From positions 27,478 to 91,477 of the IMG/VR virus record IMGVR_UViG_3300034069_000595: a stretch of 64,000 nt of DNA, one strand, 5' to 3'. The translations under genes and the position numbers were made by a program. A model generated the notes under the pieces. The model was given only the letters and a program-made list of their open reading frames with translations, was not told the origin of the DNA and ran no database searches. Origin of the DNA: a virus. This document shows, piece by piece, positions 3,849 through 28,183 of the stretch (position 1 is its first letter; each line of letters begins with the position of its first letter).

Positions 3849-4087
3849 GAGGCAGACCCATACCAACAATATTTCAGCGCGGATCTGCCTCCCTCATGGG
3901 CGGCGCCTCCGCGAGCAAGCGCGGCATGTCAGGCGGCGTTCCGGCCCCGAGTGTCGGCGATCAAAACATGTTCCTCCGTGGCGATGGCACTTGGTCGCCA
4001 CCGCCAGCAGCTGATGCCGCCCTGAGTGTCGATGACCTATCCCTTCCCTTTGACCCCGTTGCAGCGTTCGAGAACGCCATAGGCTGA
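3821..4087 (+). CDS. Small fibre-like protein
   Basis: GGVPAPSVGDQNMFLRGDGTW is a motif typical of phage fibre proteins. Confidence 0.55.
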   Translation: MELAEAATIGGRPIPTIFQRGSASLMGGASASKRGMSGGVPAPSVGDQNMFLRGDGTWSPPPAADAALSVDDLSLPFDPVAAFENAIG

Positions 4088-4090
4088 CCC

Positions 4091-4585
4091 ATGTCTCTCG
4101 TTACCCAAGTCCAAAACCTGATCACCCGCACCGGCACCGAATTCAAGTCGGTGCGGGCGGCGATCGGCAATCTCGCCAATCTGACCACTTCGGCAAAAGG
4201 AGATGTGGTTACGGCAGTGAATGAGGTCCGCGCGCTGGCGAACAGTGCCGCTGGCATGATCAACGACTCGGCAGCCTCGACCGGGACAACGTACTCAAGC
4301 AGCAAGACCGACGCCCAGATCGCAGCAGCGCTCGCCGCCTTCACATCGGGAGCGCCGGCCGCGTTGGACACCTGGAACGAGTTGGTAGCCGAGCTGCAGA
4401 AAGATGCGACGGGCATCGCCGCGCTCACGGCAGCGCTGGGCAACCGTCTGGCGACAGATGCTGTGCAGACCCTCACGCCGCAACAGAAGGCTCAAGCCAT
4501 CGCGAACCTTGGCTCGATCGCAGCTGCTGATGTCGGCGACGTGACCACGGACTTTGTGGCTGCCTTCAATCAGGCCCTCCTGTGA
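4091..4585 (+). CDS. Head-fibre/collar-like coiled-coil protein
   Basis: MSL..R..TEFKSVR..IGNLANLTT.AK..VV.AVNE and APAALDTW.EL motifs of phage fibre/decoration proteins. Confidence 0.6.
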   Translation: MSLVTQVQNLITRTGTEFKSVRAAIGNLANLTTSAKGDVVTAVNEVRALANSAAGMINDSAASTGTTYSSSKTDAQIAAALAAFTSGAPAALDTWNELVAELQKDATGIAALTAALGNRLATDAVQTLTPQQKAQAIANLGSIAAADVGDVTTDFVAAFNQALL

Positions 4586-4995
4586 GCCTGGCCGGCGAGG
4601 TCGTTAAGGGTGTCCTGAGGATCGCAGCGGAGTTCAAATCAGTCAGGACCGCCCTGGCGAGCCGCGTGGCATGCTGGGACGCGCTCGGCCTTATGCCTGC
4701 TCCGGTGGAGTGGCAGGGGACGGCAACCTCTCTGTCGGATGGCACCTGGTCGGTGAGCTTTCCCGCGGGCCTGTTCACCAAGGCTCCGCTCGTGTTCACG
4801 CAGGCAATATCCCCCGATAAGACGGCAGCTGCCACCTATGTCGCTGCGCCATGGCCGTCCACAATCTCTGGCTGTAGCGGCCACGTAGTCACTGGCAACA
4901 TCGTCACCACGCTGCTGATCAACGCCGGCGCCAACGGCCTCAAACTGTCCGGCGCGGGGATCACGGTGAACGTCCTGGCGAAATCTGTGCGCTAG
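4582..4995 (+). CDS. Fibre-tip-like protein paralogous at its N-terminus to the 4091 gene
   Basis: GTGA overlap with the previous gene; MSLAGEV..RIAAEFKSVRTAL; C-terminal lectin/gp53-like beta domain (WSVSFPAGLFTKAPLVF). Confidence 0.55.
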   Translation: MSLAGEVVKGVLRIAAEFKSVRTALASRVACWDALGLMPAPVEWQGTATSLSDGTWSVSFPAGLFTKAPLVFTQAISPDKTAAATYVAAPWPSTISGCSGHVVTGNIVTTLLINAGANGLKLSGAGITVNVLAKSVR

Positions 4996-7103: not shown

Positions 7104-8744
7104 ATGACTGATATCGCCCTCGAAGTTGCGCACAACCCGAATGCTCCGAAAGATGAGCAGCAGGACGCTATGCGTATCGCGCAGAAAGCCGCGATGCCCT
7201 CGTCCGTCCCGGATATGCTCCCCCTTGTCCAGTACGTGGCCGAGCAGTACCGCGAGCAGGAGTTCGCCAAGTCGCTGTCGAAGCAGAACGTCATCCCCTT
7301 CCCGAGCCGCAGTGCCGAGATGGGCCAGATCGGTATGCAGTCGGTCTGGCTGGACGATCAGCGCACGAACATCCAGGGCGAATGGTACGAGCGGCCGACC
7401 GCATTCAGCTTCGACACCATGCGCACTATGGCGGATAACACCCCGATCCTGGCTTCGGTGATCATGACCCGGCAGCGCCAGATCAAGCGCTTCTGCCGCG
7501 CCAGCGCGGACGGCAAGGGGCCAGGTTTCCAGATCAAGCTGAAGGACGGCGGCGCCAAGGTTGGGGCCGAGGAGCAGAAGAACATTCAGCTCCTGCAGGG
7601 CTTCTTCACCAACTGCGGCTGGGAGAGCAAGCCACGCATCCGCCAACGCCTGCGCCGGGACAACTTCTCCGGCTTTATGGCGAAGCAGATCCGCGACAGC
7701 CTGATCATGGACAGCGCGCCGATCGAGATCGAGTGGAAGCGCGACAAGAGCAAGGGCATCGACGGCTTCTATGCCGTTGACGGCTCGACCATCAGGCTTT
7801 GCAACGAGGTTGGCTACCAGGGCGACGATGAGATCTACGCGCTCCAGGTGCTCGAAGGCCGCATTCGTGCCGCCTACACCTATGACGACCTGATCTACGT
7901 GCCTCGCAACCCGCGCTCCGATGTCCTGGCCGGCGGCTACGGCATGTCCGAGACCGAGCTGCTGATCAAGGTGGTGACGGGCTTCCTGAACGCTTTCACG
8001 TACAACACCAAATACTTCGACTCGAACGCCATCCCGAAGGGACTGTTGCACCTCACAGGCGACTACAGCCAGGAAGATCTGGCCGCGTTCAAGCGGCAGT
8101 GGAATGGGATGGTCAAAGGCATTAACAACGCCTGGACGATGCCGGTGATGGTCTCGAAGAACTCGGAGTCGAAAGTAGGTTTCGAAAACTTCAATGCCGA
8201 CGTGAACGAGATTATGTTCGGCAAGTGGATGACCTTCCTGACGTCAATCATCTGCGCCATTTACGGCATGGCGCCAGACGAAATCAACTTCGAAAGCTTC
8301 ACCACGGGTGCCAGTTCGCTCTCCGGAAGCGACACCGAGGAAAAGCTGATCAACTCGAAGGATAAGGGTCTACGCCCTCTCCTGTCCCACTACGAGGATC
8401 TGCTGAGCGACTACATCGTCGGGGAGTTTGGCGACAAGTACGTGTTCCGCTGGACCGGCCTCGACGAGAAGGATCCGAGTCAGCTCTGGGCTGAGGAAGT
8501 CGCCCTAAGCACCTGGAACGAAGGCCGAAAGGCGCGTGGCTGGGATGAGATCAAGGATGAGATCCTTGGCAATGCTCCGCTGAACCCGAACCTAATGGGC
8601 GTCTACATGCAGGCCAACATGCCTGATGCGGCGCCAGGTGACGATCAGGGTGACGGCGACGACAAGCCGCCGAAGCCGAAAAAGCCCGGCGATGACATGG
8701 CGAAGGCTTTCGGGCTGCCTCCCATCTACAAAGTCCAGCCGTAG
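7104..8744 (+). CDS. Phage portal protein
   Basis: HK97/Herelle-type portal features (VDGSTIR, RNPRSD..GYGMSETELL, F.SNAIPKGLL); first gene of the head module. Confidence 0.9.
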   Translation: MTDIALEVAHNPNAPKDEQQDAMRIAQKAAMPSSVPDMLPLVQYVAEQYREQEFAKSLSKQNVIPFPSRSAEMGQIGMQSVWLDDQRTNIQGEWYERPTAFSFDTMRTMADNTPILASVIMTRQRQIKRFCRASADGKGPGFQIKLKDGGAKVGAEEQKNIQLLQGFFTNCGWESKPRIRQRLRRDNFSGFMAKQIRDSLIMDSAPIEIEWKRDKSKGIDGFYAVDGSTIRLCNEVGYQGDDEIYALQVLEGRIRAAYTYDDLIYVPRNPRSDVLAGGYGMSETELLIKVVTGFLNAFTYNTKYFDSNAIPKGLLHLTGDYSQEDLAAFKRQWNGMVKGINNAWTMPVMVSKNSESKVGFENFNADVNEIMFGKWMTFLTSIICAIYGMAPDEINFESFTTGASSLSGSDTEEKLINSKDKGLRPLLSHYEDLLSDYIVGEFGDKYVFRWTGLDEKDPSQLWAEEVALSTWNEGRKARGWDEIKDEILGNAPLNPNLMGVYMQANMPDAAPGDDQGDGDDKPPKPKKPGDDMAKAFGLPPIYKVQP

Positions 8745-11943: not shown

Positions 11944-11980
11944 CTGCTATATTTGAGCAACCGCCTAACGAGTGCTCGCC

Positions 11981-12178
11981 ATGAAACTGCTATCCGCCTT
12001 TGCCCTGTCGCTTCTATCCCTGTCAGCAGCTGCCGCCGACTCCGGCAGTTGCTATGGCGTCAATGATGCCGATGCCCGCTCCTACTGTCTTGCCAAGGCT
12101 CACCAGGATCCGAGCGCCTGCTACACCATCCAGAACAGCGCCACTCGATCGATGTGTCTTGCAGAGGTGCGAAAATAG
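11981..12178 (+). CDS. Small secreted Cys-rich protein (moron-like)
   Basis: Signal peptide plus two repeats, SCYGVNDADARSYCLA and ACYTIQNSATRSMCLA. Confidence 0.7.
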   Translation: MKLLSAFALSLLSLSAAAADSGSCYGVNDADARSYCLAKAHQDPSACYTIQNSATRSMCLAEVRK

Positions 12179-12234: not shown

Positions 12235-12264
12235 AAAAAGCCGCCCTTCGAGGTGGCTTTTTTT
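12235..12264. terminator. Terminator
   Basis: aaaaagccgcc-cttcga-ggtggctttttt. Confidence 0.85.
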
Positions 12265-12289
12265 ATGCCTGCGGTTCGCCGCGCGAAGT

Positions 12290-12311: not shown

Positions 12312-13196
12312 ATGAACCAAGACGAACAGCTTCTTGCTGACATCCCCGATTTCTTAAGCATCTCCGAGATGCTGAAAGCTACGCCTTCTGAGGAAGGTGG
12401 GGAGCGCTACATCTATCTGGAAGCCAGCAACGAGGGCGTCGACCAGCAGGGCGAGCGCGTTCTTGCCAAGGCACTGGAAGAAAGCGCGAGCCACTTCCTC
12501 AAGTTCGGCAACATCGACCTCGACCACTACACCATCATCGGTCAGCGGATGGGCCTGGCTAACCCCATGGCCTACGAGGTCGGCCGCCCGGTCGACGTGA
12601 CCGTTCGTGGTGATCGCACCTTCGTCAAGGCCCAGCTGTATCGCGGCACCGGCGAACTCGCGAAGAACGCGAACATGGTCTGGGAGTCGATGACTCAGAT
12701 CAGCCCGCCGGCGCGCTGGTATCCGTCCGTGGGCGGGTCAGTGCTGGCTAAGAGCGTGGCTGTTGACCCGAGCGGCGGCGGCAAGATCGGCGTCGTTACC
12801 AAGGTGCGCTGGACGAACATCGCCCTGAGCCGCACGCCGGTGAACCAACACCTGCCAGCTGCTGGCACTGTTCCCCTCGCCACGTTCGCCAAATCCTTCG
12901 GTGGCCTGGTGATGAACAAGTCCCTCGCTGCGGGCTACGGCTCCGACATGGCGACGCTGTTTGGTGGTGATGCGATCCGCATGCAGTCCCTGGATAGCAC
13001 ACCGCAAGGTTACTTCGAGTTTCGCGATGAGATCGCTGGCGCTGTCAGCAGTCGTGAAGCCAATAATCAGACCCGAGATGGTTTGATCGCGTTTTCAACG
13101 CACAAATTCAATCTGTCGGCTCCTGAAGCTGCGGAGTGGGTGGATCGCTTCCTGAGCGATTTGAAAAAACATCAATCTAACCGGAGCAATCCATGA
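12312..13196 (+). CDS. Prohead protease
   Basis: ASNEGVDQQGE, IDLDH, SVGG catalytic-Ser region, IALSRTPVN; canonical position. Confidence 0.85.
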   Translation: MNQDEQLLADIPDFLSISEMLKATPSEEGGERYIYLEASNEGVDQQGERVLAKALEESASHFLKFGNIDLDHYTIIGQRMGLANPMAYEVGRPVDVTVRGDRTFVKAQLYRGTGELAKNANMVWESMTQISPPARWYPSVGGSVLAKSVAVDPSGGGKIGVVTKVRWTNIALSRTPVNQHLPAAGTVPLATFAKSFGGLVMNKSLAAGYGSDMATLFGGDAIRMQSLDSTPQGYFEFRDEIAGAVSSREANNQTRDGLIAFSTHKFNLSAPEAAEWVDRFLSDLKKHQSNRSNP

Positions 13197-13852
13197 GCAA
13201 ATTCAACGAATTGCTCGCTGCTATCGATGCTGAAGCGGTAGAGCAGAGCGAACTCGCAAAATCCCTCCCAGCAGCTAACGCGAAGGATGATGCCACCATC
13301 GCCGCCGCTGCCGCTGATGGCACCAAGGTCGACGCCGAACTGACCGATGCCGAGAAGGCCGCGAAGGCCGGCGAAGCCGACCTGACCAAATCTCTGGGCG
13401 AAGGCGCTGGCGCCGTGGCCGACGAGAACGTCGAAGTCATTGAGGTCGACGAGCTGATCAAGTCGATGGGCGAGCTGAACCAGCGCTTCGATGAAAACGA
13501 AGGCCTGATGGCGAAGGCGCTCGGCAACACGCTGAACCTGGTGAAGACCCAGGGCGAGATGATCAAGTCTCAGAACGAGCTGATCAAGTCGCTGAGCACC
13601 CGCGTGGACGCCCTGGGCAGTCAAGGTGCCGGCCGCAAAGCGTTGCTGGTAGCTACCGAGCGCGCCCAGCCCGGCGAACATCTGGCGAAGTCGCTTCCTC
13701 AAGTGGACGCGCCGAAACCCCAAGAAATTCTTGCCAAGTGCCTGGATGCTCAGCGTGCCGGCAAGCTTACCGGTGGCGACGTTGCTCGCGCCGAATCTCA
13801 ACTGAACCACGGTGTTGCGATCGATCCGCGCATCCTGGCAGTCATTTCCTAA
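13193..13852 (+). CDS. Scaffolding protein
   Basis: Acidic coiled coil between protease and capsid genes with repeated hydrophobic-x-KS motifs. Confidence 0.75.
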   Translation: MSKFNELLAAIDAEAVEQSELAKSLPAANAKDDATIAAAAADGTKVDAELTDAEKAAKAGEADLTKSLGEGAGAVADENVEVIEVDELIKSMGELNQRFDENEGLMAKALGNTLNLVKTQGEMIKSQNELIKSLSTRVDALGSQGAGRKALLVATERAQPGEHLAKSLPQVDAPKPQEILAKCLDAQRAGKLTGGDVARAESQLNHGVAIDPRILAVIS

Positions 13853-13867
13853 GCCCCGGAGGCATCG

Positions 13868-15328
13868 ATGGACTTCCTCAACAACCCCAACACCTCCGGC
13901 GAAGGCATTGCCGGTGATATGGGCCAAGCGGACCTGGTAGCGCTGCAGAAGTCTCTGCAAGCGGGCTACGGCTCCGACATGAACGACCTGAGCGGTGGTT
14001 CGGCCCTGCGTATCCAGTCTCTGGATACCACCCTGCAGGCCACTGTGCAGGACAACCAGCACTTCGCGCTGTTCAACGCTCTGCCGAAGCCCAAGGCGAC
14101 TGCGGTGCTGGATGAATGGACCGAGCAGTCTGACATCGGCGGCTTCCTGGGCGACAGCTTCAACGACCAGGATGGTGCTGCGTCTGAGACCAATGGTCAG
14201 TACGACCGCCGCATCGGTCGTGTGAAGTACATGACCACCTACCGCAAAATCCCGATCGTTCTGCAAAGCCAGAACAACCTGGCCGACGCGGTTTCCCTGG
14301 AGACCATCAACGGCTCCAAGCAGCTGCTGTCCTCGATCGAGTTCAGCCTGTTCGAAGGTAACGATCAGGTCACCCCGAAATCCTTCGCCGGCATTCGCCA
14401 GCAGATCGAAAGCCTGGGCAGCCCCGACCACGTGATCGACATGCGCGGCTCGTCCCTGGACAGCGCCGATCCGATCATGAAGGCCGCTGAGACCGTGTTC
14501 GGCTTCGGCAACTTCGGCAAGCTGACCGACATCTACATGCCTCCGAGCGTGCAGAGCGACCTGAACACCAACCTCGACCCGGCTTTCCGTGTCGCGTTGG
14601 ACAACAGCCCGAACAGCATCTCGTACGGCACCCACGTCCGCGCGATCCGCACCTCCTGGGGTGACATCGCCACGAAGAACGACGTGTTCATCCGTGACGA
14701 GAAGATGCAGAAGCCGTTCGAGATCCGTAACGGGATCCACGCAGCTGCCGCTGTGGCGAACGCTGCGTACAAGCCTGTCGGCCTGACCGCTGTGGCTGCT
14801 GCTGGCCCTGCTGACTCGTACTGGGAAGCGTCTCACGCTGGTGCCTACGTGTACTACGTGACCGGCATCACCGAGAAGGGCGAGACTCAGGTCGTTGCGG
14901 CAACTGGCGGCGCTGTCACCGTCGCTGCTGGCGGCAAGGTCACCCTGTCCATCACCCCGTCTGCCTCCGGCATCGAGACTGGCTACGTGATCTATCGCGG
15001 TCGCAAGGATGGCACCGCTGCCCTGACCGACGTTCGCGAGATGGTTCGCGTGCCGAAGAACTCCGGCGGCAACACCGTGTACGTGGACCTCAACCGCGAG
15101 ATCCCTGGCACCACCTGCTCCTACGCCCTGAACCTGTCGGCCAGCGACCACGCCATTGCCTGGCGCCAGTACCTGCCGATGATGAAGATCCCGATGGCAG
15201 CGGTGAACAGCCCGATCATCCCTTGGCTGCAAATGATCTGCGGTTACCTGCGGATCACCAAGCGCAACCAGCACGTGGTTCTGAAGAACATCGTGCCTCG
15301 TGGCGCACTCTGGAAGCCTTTCGGCTGA
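13868..15328 (+). CDS. Major capsid protein (Herelleviridae-like)
   Basis: KSLQAGYG...GGSALRIQSLD resembles phage K-type KSFQTGYG...AGALRREILD; strongly biased codons. Confidence 0.92.
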   Translation: MDFLNNPNTSGEGIAGDMGQADLVALQKSLQAGYGSDMNDLSGGSALRIQSLDTTLQATVQDNQHFALFNALPKPKATAVLDEWTEQSDIGGFLGDSFNDQDGAASETNGQYDRRIGRVKYMTTYRKIPIVLQSQNNLADAVSLETINGSKQLLSSIEFSLFEGNDQVTPKSFAGIRQQIESLGSPDHVIDMRGSSLDSADPIMKAAETVFGFGNFGKLTDIYMPPSVQSDLNTNLDPAFRVALDNSPNSISYGTHVRAIRTSWGDIATKNDVFIRDEKMQKPFEIRNGIHAAAAVANAAYKPVGLTAVAAAGPADSYWEASHAGAYVYYVTGITEKGETQVVAATGGAVTVAAGGKVTLSITPSASGIETGYVIYRGRKDGTAALTDVREMVRVPKNSGGNTVYVDLNREIPGTTCSYALNLSASDHAIAWRQYLPMMKIPMAAVNSPIIPWLQMICGYLRITKRNQHVVLKNIVPRGALWKPFG

Positions 15329-27410: not shown

Positions 27411-28183
27411 GCGAGTTCAAGAAGGGGCGCGTTGTCGCCATCCACCCAGAAGATCACTCCTGCGATATCGTCATGCTGGGCGATGGCTCGCGCCTGGCCG
27501 GCGTGCAGATCCAGTCCCAGTCGGCCAGCACCAATACGGGCCTAAACGACCTGGTGGCTCCGGCTGCTGCGCCAGACGGCAATAAGTGGAACGCCAGCCA
27601 GAAGACTGGCCGCGATATCCTTGCCATCGTCGGGTGGTGCGAGGGCGTGCCGTTCGTGAACGGCTTCCTGTTCCCGCAAATCTGCCAGATGACCTTCCCC
27701 GAGGCGAACCGGAAGATCGATCGACACGCTTCGGACTTCTACCAAACGATCGATGCCAAGGGTAACGTCGAGTGGTCTCACCCGAGCGGCACCTACCTGC
27801 GCATTGGCGAGAGCCCTGCGCACGAGGATCTGACCGGCAAGGACTTCGACAAGAAGTGGGCCATCAAGAACAACACCGGGACGGCGCCGCACGTGCACCT
27901 GACGGTGGCCAGTGCCGGTTCGGTCGTCGCTACAATCGATATCGCACCATCTGGAGCCATCACGGTGACGGGCGCATCGCTGATGGCGACGCTCACCGGG
28001 GCAGCCACCTTGATCGCGCCTGGTGGGGTCACCGTCGATACGCCAGACGCGCACTTCACCGGCAACATCAAGGCCGATGGCAATATCACCGACCTGGTGC
28101 GCAGCATGGCGGCGGATCGCCTGATCTACAACAGCCACACCAACCCGAACGGCGGCAGCAGCGCGCCTCCGCAGCAGATGTGA
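27407..28183 (+). CDS. Baseplate spike (gpV/gp45-like)
   Basis: OB-fold N-terminus (KGRVVAIHPEDHSCDI), beta-helix repeats, C-terminal YNSHTN; ATGA overlap. Confidence 0.8.
   Translation: MSEFKKGRVVAIHPEDHSCDIVMLGDGSRLAGVQIQSQSASTNTGLNDLVAPAAAPDGNKWNASQKTGRDILAIVGWCEGVPFVNGFLFPQICQMTFPEANRKIDRHASDFYQTIDAKGNVEWSHPSGTYLRIGESPAHEDLTGKDFDKKWAIKNNTGTAPHVHLTVASAGSVVATIDIAPSGAITVTGASLMATLTGAATLIAPGGVTVDTPDAHFTGNIKADGNITDLVRSMAADRLIYNSHTNPNGGSSAPPQQM

Follow-up and report, generated by a model that had tools for sequence, protein, structure and literature searches.

The prohead protease encoded in a 64,000-nucleotide stretch of viral DNA (IMG/VR record IMGVR_UViG_3300034069_000595, positions 27,478 to 91,477; the whole of this stretch is called the window here) carries in its interdomain linker a segment which, judging from the sequence, is a copy of the cleavage site of the phage's own major capsid protein together with the ~25 residues that head the capsid protein once it has been cut. 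The genes concerned are that for the prohead (capsid maturation) serine protease (12312–13196, 294 amino acids), the scaffolding protein gene that lies between protease and capsid genes as it does in SPO1 (13193–13852, 219 amino acids), and that for the major capsid protein, of the HK97 fold (13868–15328, 486 amino acids). These genes and the features located within them are on the + strand. The copy in the protease occupies residues 203–228 (12918–12995) and is identical to capsid residues 28–53 (13949–14026) at 19 of 26 positions. Both genes contain the same 21-bp run, gcgggctacggctccgacatg, at this place. A preliminary description of this DNA had reported the two segments, their identity and the common run, and all of these are exact. 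We favour the view, at chances a little short of even, that the linker is a combined module for self-cleavage and for mimicry of the capsid arm, serving recruitment and release of the enzyme.

The match between protease and capsid protein is real and far beyond chance. BLASTP aligns protease residues 199–232 with capsid residues 24–57 at 21 of 34 identities with an expectation value (E) of 2e-9, extending the copy to 12906–13007. When the complete 93.6-kb genome was searched in all six frames with a profile of the motif, only the two copies came up (E 2.6e-16 and 1.2e-15); the next hit had an E of 4.9. The absence of a third copy from the genome rules out a general head-targeting tag carried by other proteins. 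The gene identities assumed in the preliminary description hold as well. The protease matches the PHROG family of head maturation proteases (phrog_1028, E 4.4e-31, spanning residues 8–292) and has the fold of T4 gp21, and the capsid protein matches a family of major head proteins (phrog_752, E 1.8e-79). Pfam returned zero matches for six proteins of the head region, protease and capsid protein included.

Cleavage of the capsid protein between lysine and serine, which the preliminary description had taken over from reports on related capsids, is borne out by homology. The capsid protein has relatives of solved structure in SPO1 Gp6.1 (pdb:9vel; E 2.7e-35) and in the phi812-type major capsid protein (pdb:5lii, E 2.4e-16; pdb:9row, E 4.2e-15). 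The deposited mature phi812-type chain of 439 residues (pdb:9row, 9rox and 9roz) begins at the serine that follows Lys24 of a 463-residue precursor, and the residue aligned with this serine in the window's capsid protein is S29. A maturation cut at K28↓S29 (the arrow marks the bond to be cut) is supported by this alignment. It is predicted to remove a propeptide of residues 1–28 (13868–13951), the last of which, K28, is invariant in 61 homologues. The stretch following the predicted cut (13952–14038) is also strongly constrained, with L30, A32, G33, Y34, G43, G44, A46 and R48–D53 invariant in the same 61 homologues. The AlphaFold2 model of the capsid protein leaves residues 1–62 disordered, with a predicted local distance difference test (pLDDT) score <50, and has the spine helix at residues 137–163; the shared stretch is, therefore, the start of an HK97-fold protein's N-terminal arm.

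An AlphaFold2 model of the protease monomer, built on 59 homologues, shows two domains joined by a disordered linker. The catalytic domain (residues 22–175; 12375–12836) is the core of the model, with block pLDDT values of about 76–96, and is the part that aligns with the gp21 and assemblin folds. Its best Foldseek match is T4 gp21 (pdb:5jbl; E 7e-5, probability 1.0), followed by the proteases of human cytomegalovirus, Kaposi's sarcoma-associated herpesvirus, Epstein–Barr virus and pseudorabies virus. Residues H72 and S139, candidates for the catalytic His and Ser, are invariant across the 59 homologues. The C-terminal domain (residues 234–292; 13011–13187) is made up of helices at 234–246, 255–265 and 270–292, with block pLDDT values of 85–92. 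A BLASTP comparison of residues 229–294 with the scaffold detected no similarity (best E 3.3), and a feature search of the ESM Atlas with the same residues returned unnamed clusters only. The linker, residues 183–228, contains the capsid-arm copy and has pLDDT <50 throughout. Both copies of the motif are, on these models, flexible segments of the kind that are structured only on binding. A nested gene starting at M201 of the protease, resembling lambda C/Nu3 or herpesvirus UL26.5, was considered on account of a GGTGG 7 nt upstream, and was rejected as Met201 is present in only 26 of 79 homologues.

Two putative self-cleavage sites lie in the linker. The first, FAK↓SF (K194↓S195; 12885–12899), fits the motif described below and has a lysine that is invariant in the 59 homologues. 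The second, MNK↓SL (K203↓S204; 12912–12926), is in register with K28↓S29 of the capsid protein, and its K203 and L205 are conserved in all 79 paired genomes. With two such sites in the linker, self-cleavage would free a C-terminal fragment of either 100 or 91 residues. The preliminary description had named only the shorter of these; its arithmetic is right (294 minus 203), but the invariant K194↓S195 nine residues upstream makes the 100-residue fragment equally possible. A third match to the motif, LAKAL (12462–12476; protease residues 51–55), is found inside the catalytic domain, near the start of the helix at 52–65. It could be a site of self-inactivation or could simply be inaccessible.

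At the level of sequence, the two linker sites share one consensus with the capsid site, LQK↓SL, and with six sites in the scaffold, such as LAK↓SL. The pattern hydrophobic-x-K-(S/A)-hydrophobic occurs 19 times in the window's 69 long open reading frames (ORFs) of the + strand, and 12 of the 19 matches fall in the ORF at the portal position, the protease, the scaffold and the capsid protein, which together contribute 9% of the residues. In the scaffold, K23, K66, K90, K108, K132, K166 and K182 are invariant or nearly so among 51 homologues, each being followed by S, A or C, while the remainder of the protein averages 35% column identity in the same set. The scaffold also has a conserved C-terminal block, GKLTGxDV...LNxG, which appears in degenerate form in the scaffolds of SPO1, CP-51 and the Thermus phages, and which is not evident in those of phi812, P100 and Lb338-1. 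This block is a candidate for the end of the scaffold that binds the coat.

The shared segment is not peculiar to one genome. The closest isolate is Pseudomonas phage Touem01, with 82% DNA identity, and protein searches reach three groups of phages: those of 86–96 kb that infect Aeromonas, Pseudomonas putida, Escherichia, Enterobacter, Yersinia, Bordetella and Morganella; the Thermus phages; and the Herelleviridae (SPO1, CP-51, K/phi812, P100/A511-type and Lb338-1). When the protease was compared with the capsid protein of the same phage in 15 annotated genomes, the same pair of segments was the best or only local match in 14 (E 1e-4 to 1e-11); the sole doubtful case, that of Leptospira LE1, has a weak motif. 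The aligned consensus for both proteins reads K-(S/A)-L/F...G/S-Y...D...G-G-x-A-L/F-R-x-Q/E-S-L-D/E. Both proteins have the motif at 78 of the 78 IMG/VR loci that carry both genes, and a strict form of the pattern is present in at least 46 of 117 full-length representatives of protease clusters formed at 50% identity. Searches of all PDB sequences with the proteases of phi812 and SPO1 matched only the N-termini of the phages' own capsid proteins (E 1e-6 and 2.4e-6). The preliminary description had made its reading depend on conservation in homologous proteases, and the segment is indeed kept from this clade to the Herelleviridae and the Thermus phages.

Some of these relatives deserve a remark of their own. 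In Touem01 (4001–4885), ECML-606-1 and other close relatives, the protease bears no annotation beyond that of a hypothetical protein. Homologues of the protease, scaffold and capsid protein (73%, 48% and 83% identical, respectively) are present on a 5.35-Mb contig of Kaistia sp. 32K, which suggests a relative of the 90-kb phages either integrated or assembled into the chromosome. The capsid gene of Thermus phage Lalka27b (L009, 9207–10561) is directly followed on its 3′ side by an annotated clustered regularly interspaced short palindromic repeat (CRISPR) region and a gene of the TnpB family.

How the likeness between the two proteins is maintained can be judged from comparisons between phages. 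The protease copy is on average 64% identical to the arm of its own capsid protein and 41% identical to the capsid arms of other clades. In an exact permutation over eight clade representatives, 2 of the 40320 possible arrangements reached the score of the true pairing (p = 5e-5), and the own capsid protein is the best match for six of the eight proteases. Under simple divergence after an old duplication, the protease copy would be no closer to the arm of its own phage than to foreign ones, and the excess for own pairs speaks against this. At the DNA level, identical residues in the two proteins use the same codon 123 times over 15 phages, with 119.6 expected. This lack of a synonymous excess rules out recent gene conversion and makes selection on the protein the simplest reading. 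The window itself has a same-codon count of 13 of 18 (8.8 expected, z = 2.0), and its closest relative, Touem01, has 7 of 20 (8.8 expected). On these codon counts, the 21 identical bases in the window are not evidence of a recent duplication of DNA.

The mechanism proposed for the linker has two parts. Self-cleavage at K194↓S195 and K203↓S204 would separate the catalytic domain from the C-terminal module, with the same specificity and probably with the same timing as maturation of the capsid protein. Before this, the arm copy in the protease would attach to the same prohead component as the true capsid arm does. The partner might be the scaffold, through its coat-binding C-terminal end, an adjacent capsid subunit or a protease exosite. 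Such binding would bring a limited number of enzyme copies into the shell as it assembles, and cleavage would then free the catalytic domain to digest the scaffold and to trim the capsid and portal proteins. One model has the scaffold bind the protease's arm copy in the way that it would bind capsid arms, with scaffold oligomers bringing in both proteins; the data are equally compatible with a partner site that is conserved on the body of the capsid protein or on the protease. A role in tethering or recruitment, one of several suggested in the preliminary description, is plausible. The narrower proposal that the protease, or its C-terminal fragment of 91–100 residues, is encapsidated by mimicry of the substrate's interface, occupying the sites of capsid arms on the scaffold or on neighbouring capsid subunits, is a tentative one, which we consider possible but would not expect to be right. 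If true, it would set the copy number of the enzyme in the prohead, and it would explain the persistence of protease peptides in virions, for phages of Pseudomonas, Thermus, Bacillus, Listeria and Staphylococcus.

Several observations weigh against a module for recruitment and release. The match is not a strict one, as the position at which R and G alternate is discordant in 6 of 79 genomes, and evolution is faster in the protease copy than in the capsid arm. The AlphaFold2 monomer model leaves the linker undocked on either domain of the protease. Covariation was examined on a tree of the capsid body with 78 rows, at positions 204/29, 208/33, 210/35 and 223/48 (protease/capsid) among others. 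The raw tables are concordant (R/G 73 versus 6) but confounded by descent, and the capsid arm within the close clade changes state only 1–4 times at most informative positions, and up to 9 times at one. These changes are too few to give a phylogenetically corrected test any power within the close clade, so that about eight deep lineages carry the case for covariation. The matching may stem from ancient, episodic gene conversion, with silent sites that have since become saturated. Finally, conservation on the P′ side of the cut would need no tether if the protease by itself recognised a long stretch of its substrate. A prediction of the complex of capsid protein, scaffold and protease residues 196–294 gave an uncontrolled score of 0.00, and counts neither for nor against binding.

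The last of these objections can be put as an explanation in its own right, namely that the copy is purely an extended substrate site, present only to make self-cutting efficient, whether for activation or for self-destruction, and with no role in recruitment. The copy does begin exactly at K↓S in most lineages, and K203 and L205 are the constant residues already noted. Furthermore, deep conservation of the core GG-x-A-L-R-x-Q/E-S-L would be expected if the partner of the segment were as conserved as the catalytic domain. Against this stands the brevity of the other sites: the seven scaffold sites and the K194 site of the protease share a motif of only 4–5 residues, so that a long stretch is unneeded for a candidate site. 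Two lineages are also instructive. In Morganella phage Mecenats66 and at the metagenomic locus L097, the lysine at the start of the copy has been lost and the arm-like part has been kept (17 of 22 residues being identical to its own capsid protein in L097), and the sole K↓S ahead of the arm copy is 9–10 residues upstream, at the invariant K194-type site. Since the arm is kept where the adjacent lysine is gone, and since the scaffold sites manage with their short motif, the ~20 residues beyond the cut appear to be conserved for a reason other than their fit to the active site, or in addition to it. Nor does the linker lie in the active-site groove of the AlphaFold2 model, although this is weak evidence. 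On balance, the extended substrate site is a somewhat doubtful explanation, yet one with enough in its favour to be taken seriously.

A second possibility is that the linker copy acts as a pseudosubstrate until the head assembles, holding the zymogen inactive by filling the substrate or arm site in cis or between proteases, and is displaced in the prohead by capsid arms at high local concentration. Prohead proteases such as T4 gp21 and HK97 gp4 must stay inactive until assembly, which counts in favour of autoinhibition, as does the tethering of a substrate-like sequence beside the catalytic domain; the matching to the own capsid protein would also be explained. The monomer model shows no docking of the linker, the residues in question being those of the disordered stretch 183–228, and we think autoinhibition unlikely.

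The preliminary description also raised the possibility that the 91-residue piece released from the C-terminal end is kept in virions as a minor capsid protein, held in the lattice by its capsid-like arm. The fragment's C-terminal domain is, in the model, a well-folded helical unit, and protease has been seen by mass spectrometry in the purified virions of relatives. It was detected in Kayvirus fRuSau02 (PMC5618024) and in the P100-like CKA15, with four peptides at 29.5% coverage (PMC12282133), and the record of fHe-Yen8-01 annotates the protease as particle-associated; each names the protease without telling its parts apart. The authors of the virion proteomes, however, attribute the protease signal to residual enzyme. 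The solved capsids 5lii, 9row/9rox/9roz and 9vel contain no chain that matches the protease, and the PDB search with the phi812 and SPO1 proteases, which gave capsid N-termini only, recovered no protease-derived chain. An ordered component of the lattice is, therefore, unlikely, and the idea of a minor capsid protein, at least in its ordered form, is not supported by the comparison; taken as a whole we rate it as improbable. A disordered or sub-stoichiometric remnant of the protease in the virion is possible. Lastly, the notion of a non-functional relic, left behind when adjacent head genes underwent duplication or recombination long ago, to which the 670 bp between the genes and the one 21-bp identical run in the window might lend some colour, is strongly disfavoured and to our minds scarcely credible, as the motif has invariant positions in hundreds of lineages from Pseudomonadota phages to phages of Staphylococcus, Bacillus and Thermus, shows no excess of synonymous identity and is retained in a linker otherwise free to vary.

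The genes discussed here form part of a head module with the order portal, protease, scaffold and major capsid protein. The window has an ORF of 546 amino acids at the portal position (7104–8744) followed by the protease, scaffold and capsid genes. The gene at the same position upstream is annotated as encoding the portal protein in four relatives, Touem01, ST4, Dolphis and fHe-Yen8-01, and the annotated order is identical in SPO1, CP-51 and others. The gene at the scaffold position in SPO1 is annotated as encoding a head scaffolding protein. The portal-position ORF has the predicted maturation-site motif twice, as FAKSL at residue 54 and as MAKAF at residue 532, and from these motifs the portal protein may be trimmed at both ends. 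Just 5′ of the protease gene is an ORF of 68 amino acids (11972–12178) that opens with what resembles a signal peptide and contains repeated units with Cys. After it come a GC-rich hairpin and a T run resembling a terminator (12236–12266).

Protease entry into the procapsid is understood in few systems only. The precursor of herpesvirus pUL26 type is similar in layout, with an N-terminal serine protease of assemblin fold, a linker and a C-terminal module. Its release (R) and maturation (M) sites share one short consensus, and its C-terminal module brings the protease into the procapsid. A consensus common to release and maturation sites is predicted here too. The C-terminal module of herpesviruses is the scaffold itself, which a nested in-frame gene encodes, and it attaches to the capsid protein. 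The element duplicated in the present phage is, in contrast, the retained arm of the capsid protein, and the C-terminal region is unrelated to the scaffold. T4 gp21 is built into the prohead core as a zymogen and trims the scaffold, the capsid protein and itself at L/I-x-E. We know of no copy of a capsid arm in gp21, which was not compared for one. The catalytic domain finds its best structural match in gp21 (5jbl), but the two enzymes differ in P1 specificity, P1 being Lys in this phage.

The tail of HK97 gp4 binds the fused scaffold (delta) domain of the capsid protein, and to our knowledge it copies no segment of the capsid protein. The likeness to HK97 is that a segment outside the catalytic domain would serve as the encapsidation element: according to work by Duda, Oh and Hendrix in 2013, a short C-terminal segment of gp4 is reportedly needed to encapsidate the protease. 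There are about 60–90 copies of protease per HK97 prohead (PMC12749128). The present phage differs from HK97 in having a separate scaffold. It shares this feature with phage 80alpha, in the procapsid of which a helix-and-hook at the C-terminus of the scaffold docks on the N-arm of the capsid protein (PMC5644958). By analogy, this docking is the kind of interaction that a copy of the arm in the protease could borrow. The two systems differ in that a host protease makes the cut in 80alpha, and a copy of the arm in a phage protease plays no part there.

Full-text literature searches found no paper describing the motif shared by protease and capsid protein. The parts of the analysis that are new here are the mature N-terminus placed from PDB entries, the uniqueness of the motif in the whole genome, the codon and exact permutation tests, the survey of 78 loci, the domain model of the protease and the lineages in which the arm persists although the Lys next to it is missing.

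The module would belong, as a variant, among the known modules for protease encapsidation and release. Elsewhere the enzyme enters by sharing sequence with the scaffold (lambda and the herpesviruses), through a tail that binds the delta domain (HK97) or by being built into the scaffold core (T4). We know of no described mechanism of protease entry for the SPO1/Twort-like group, which includes the therapeutic Kayviruses of Staphylococcus and the P100/A511 phages of Listeria, or for its Gram-negative relatives of 90 kb. The markers described here have a use in annotation: the maturation sites of the capsid protein, protease, scaffold and portal protein become predictable from the sequence, and a protease can be paired with its own capsid gene. 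The arm motif and the K↓S sites would thus let proteases now listed as hypothetical proteins, and their cut sites, be annotated. If mimicry is indeed the mechanism, the motif could be transferred to other proteins as a tag that loads cargo into capsids of this kind. For the biology of the group as a whole, a conserved arm copy matched to the phage's own capsid protein provides a concrete hypothesis for how the protease enters the procapsid, and one that is testable by mutation in well-studied phages.

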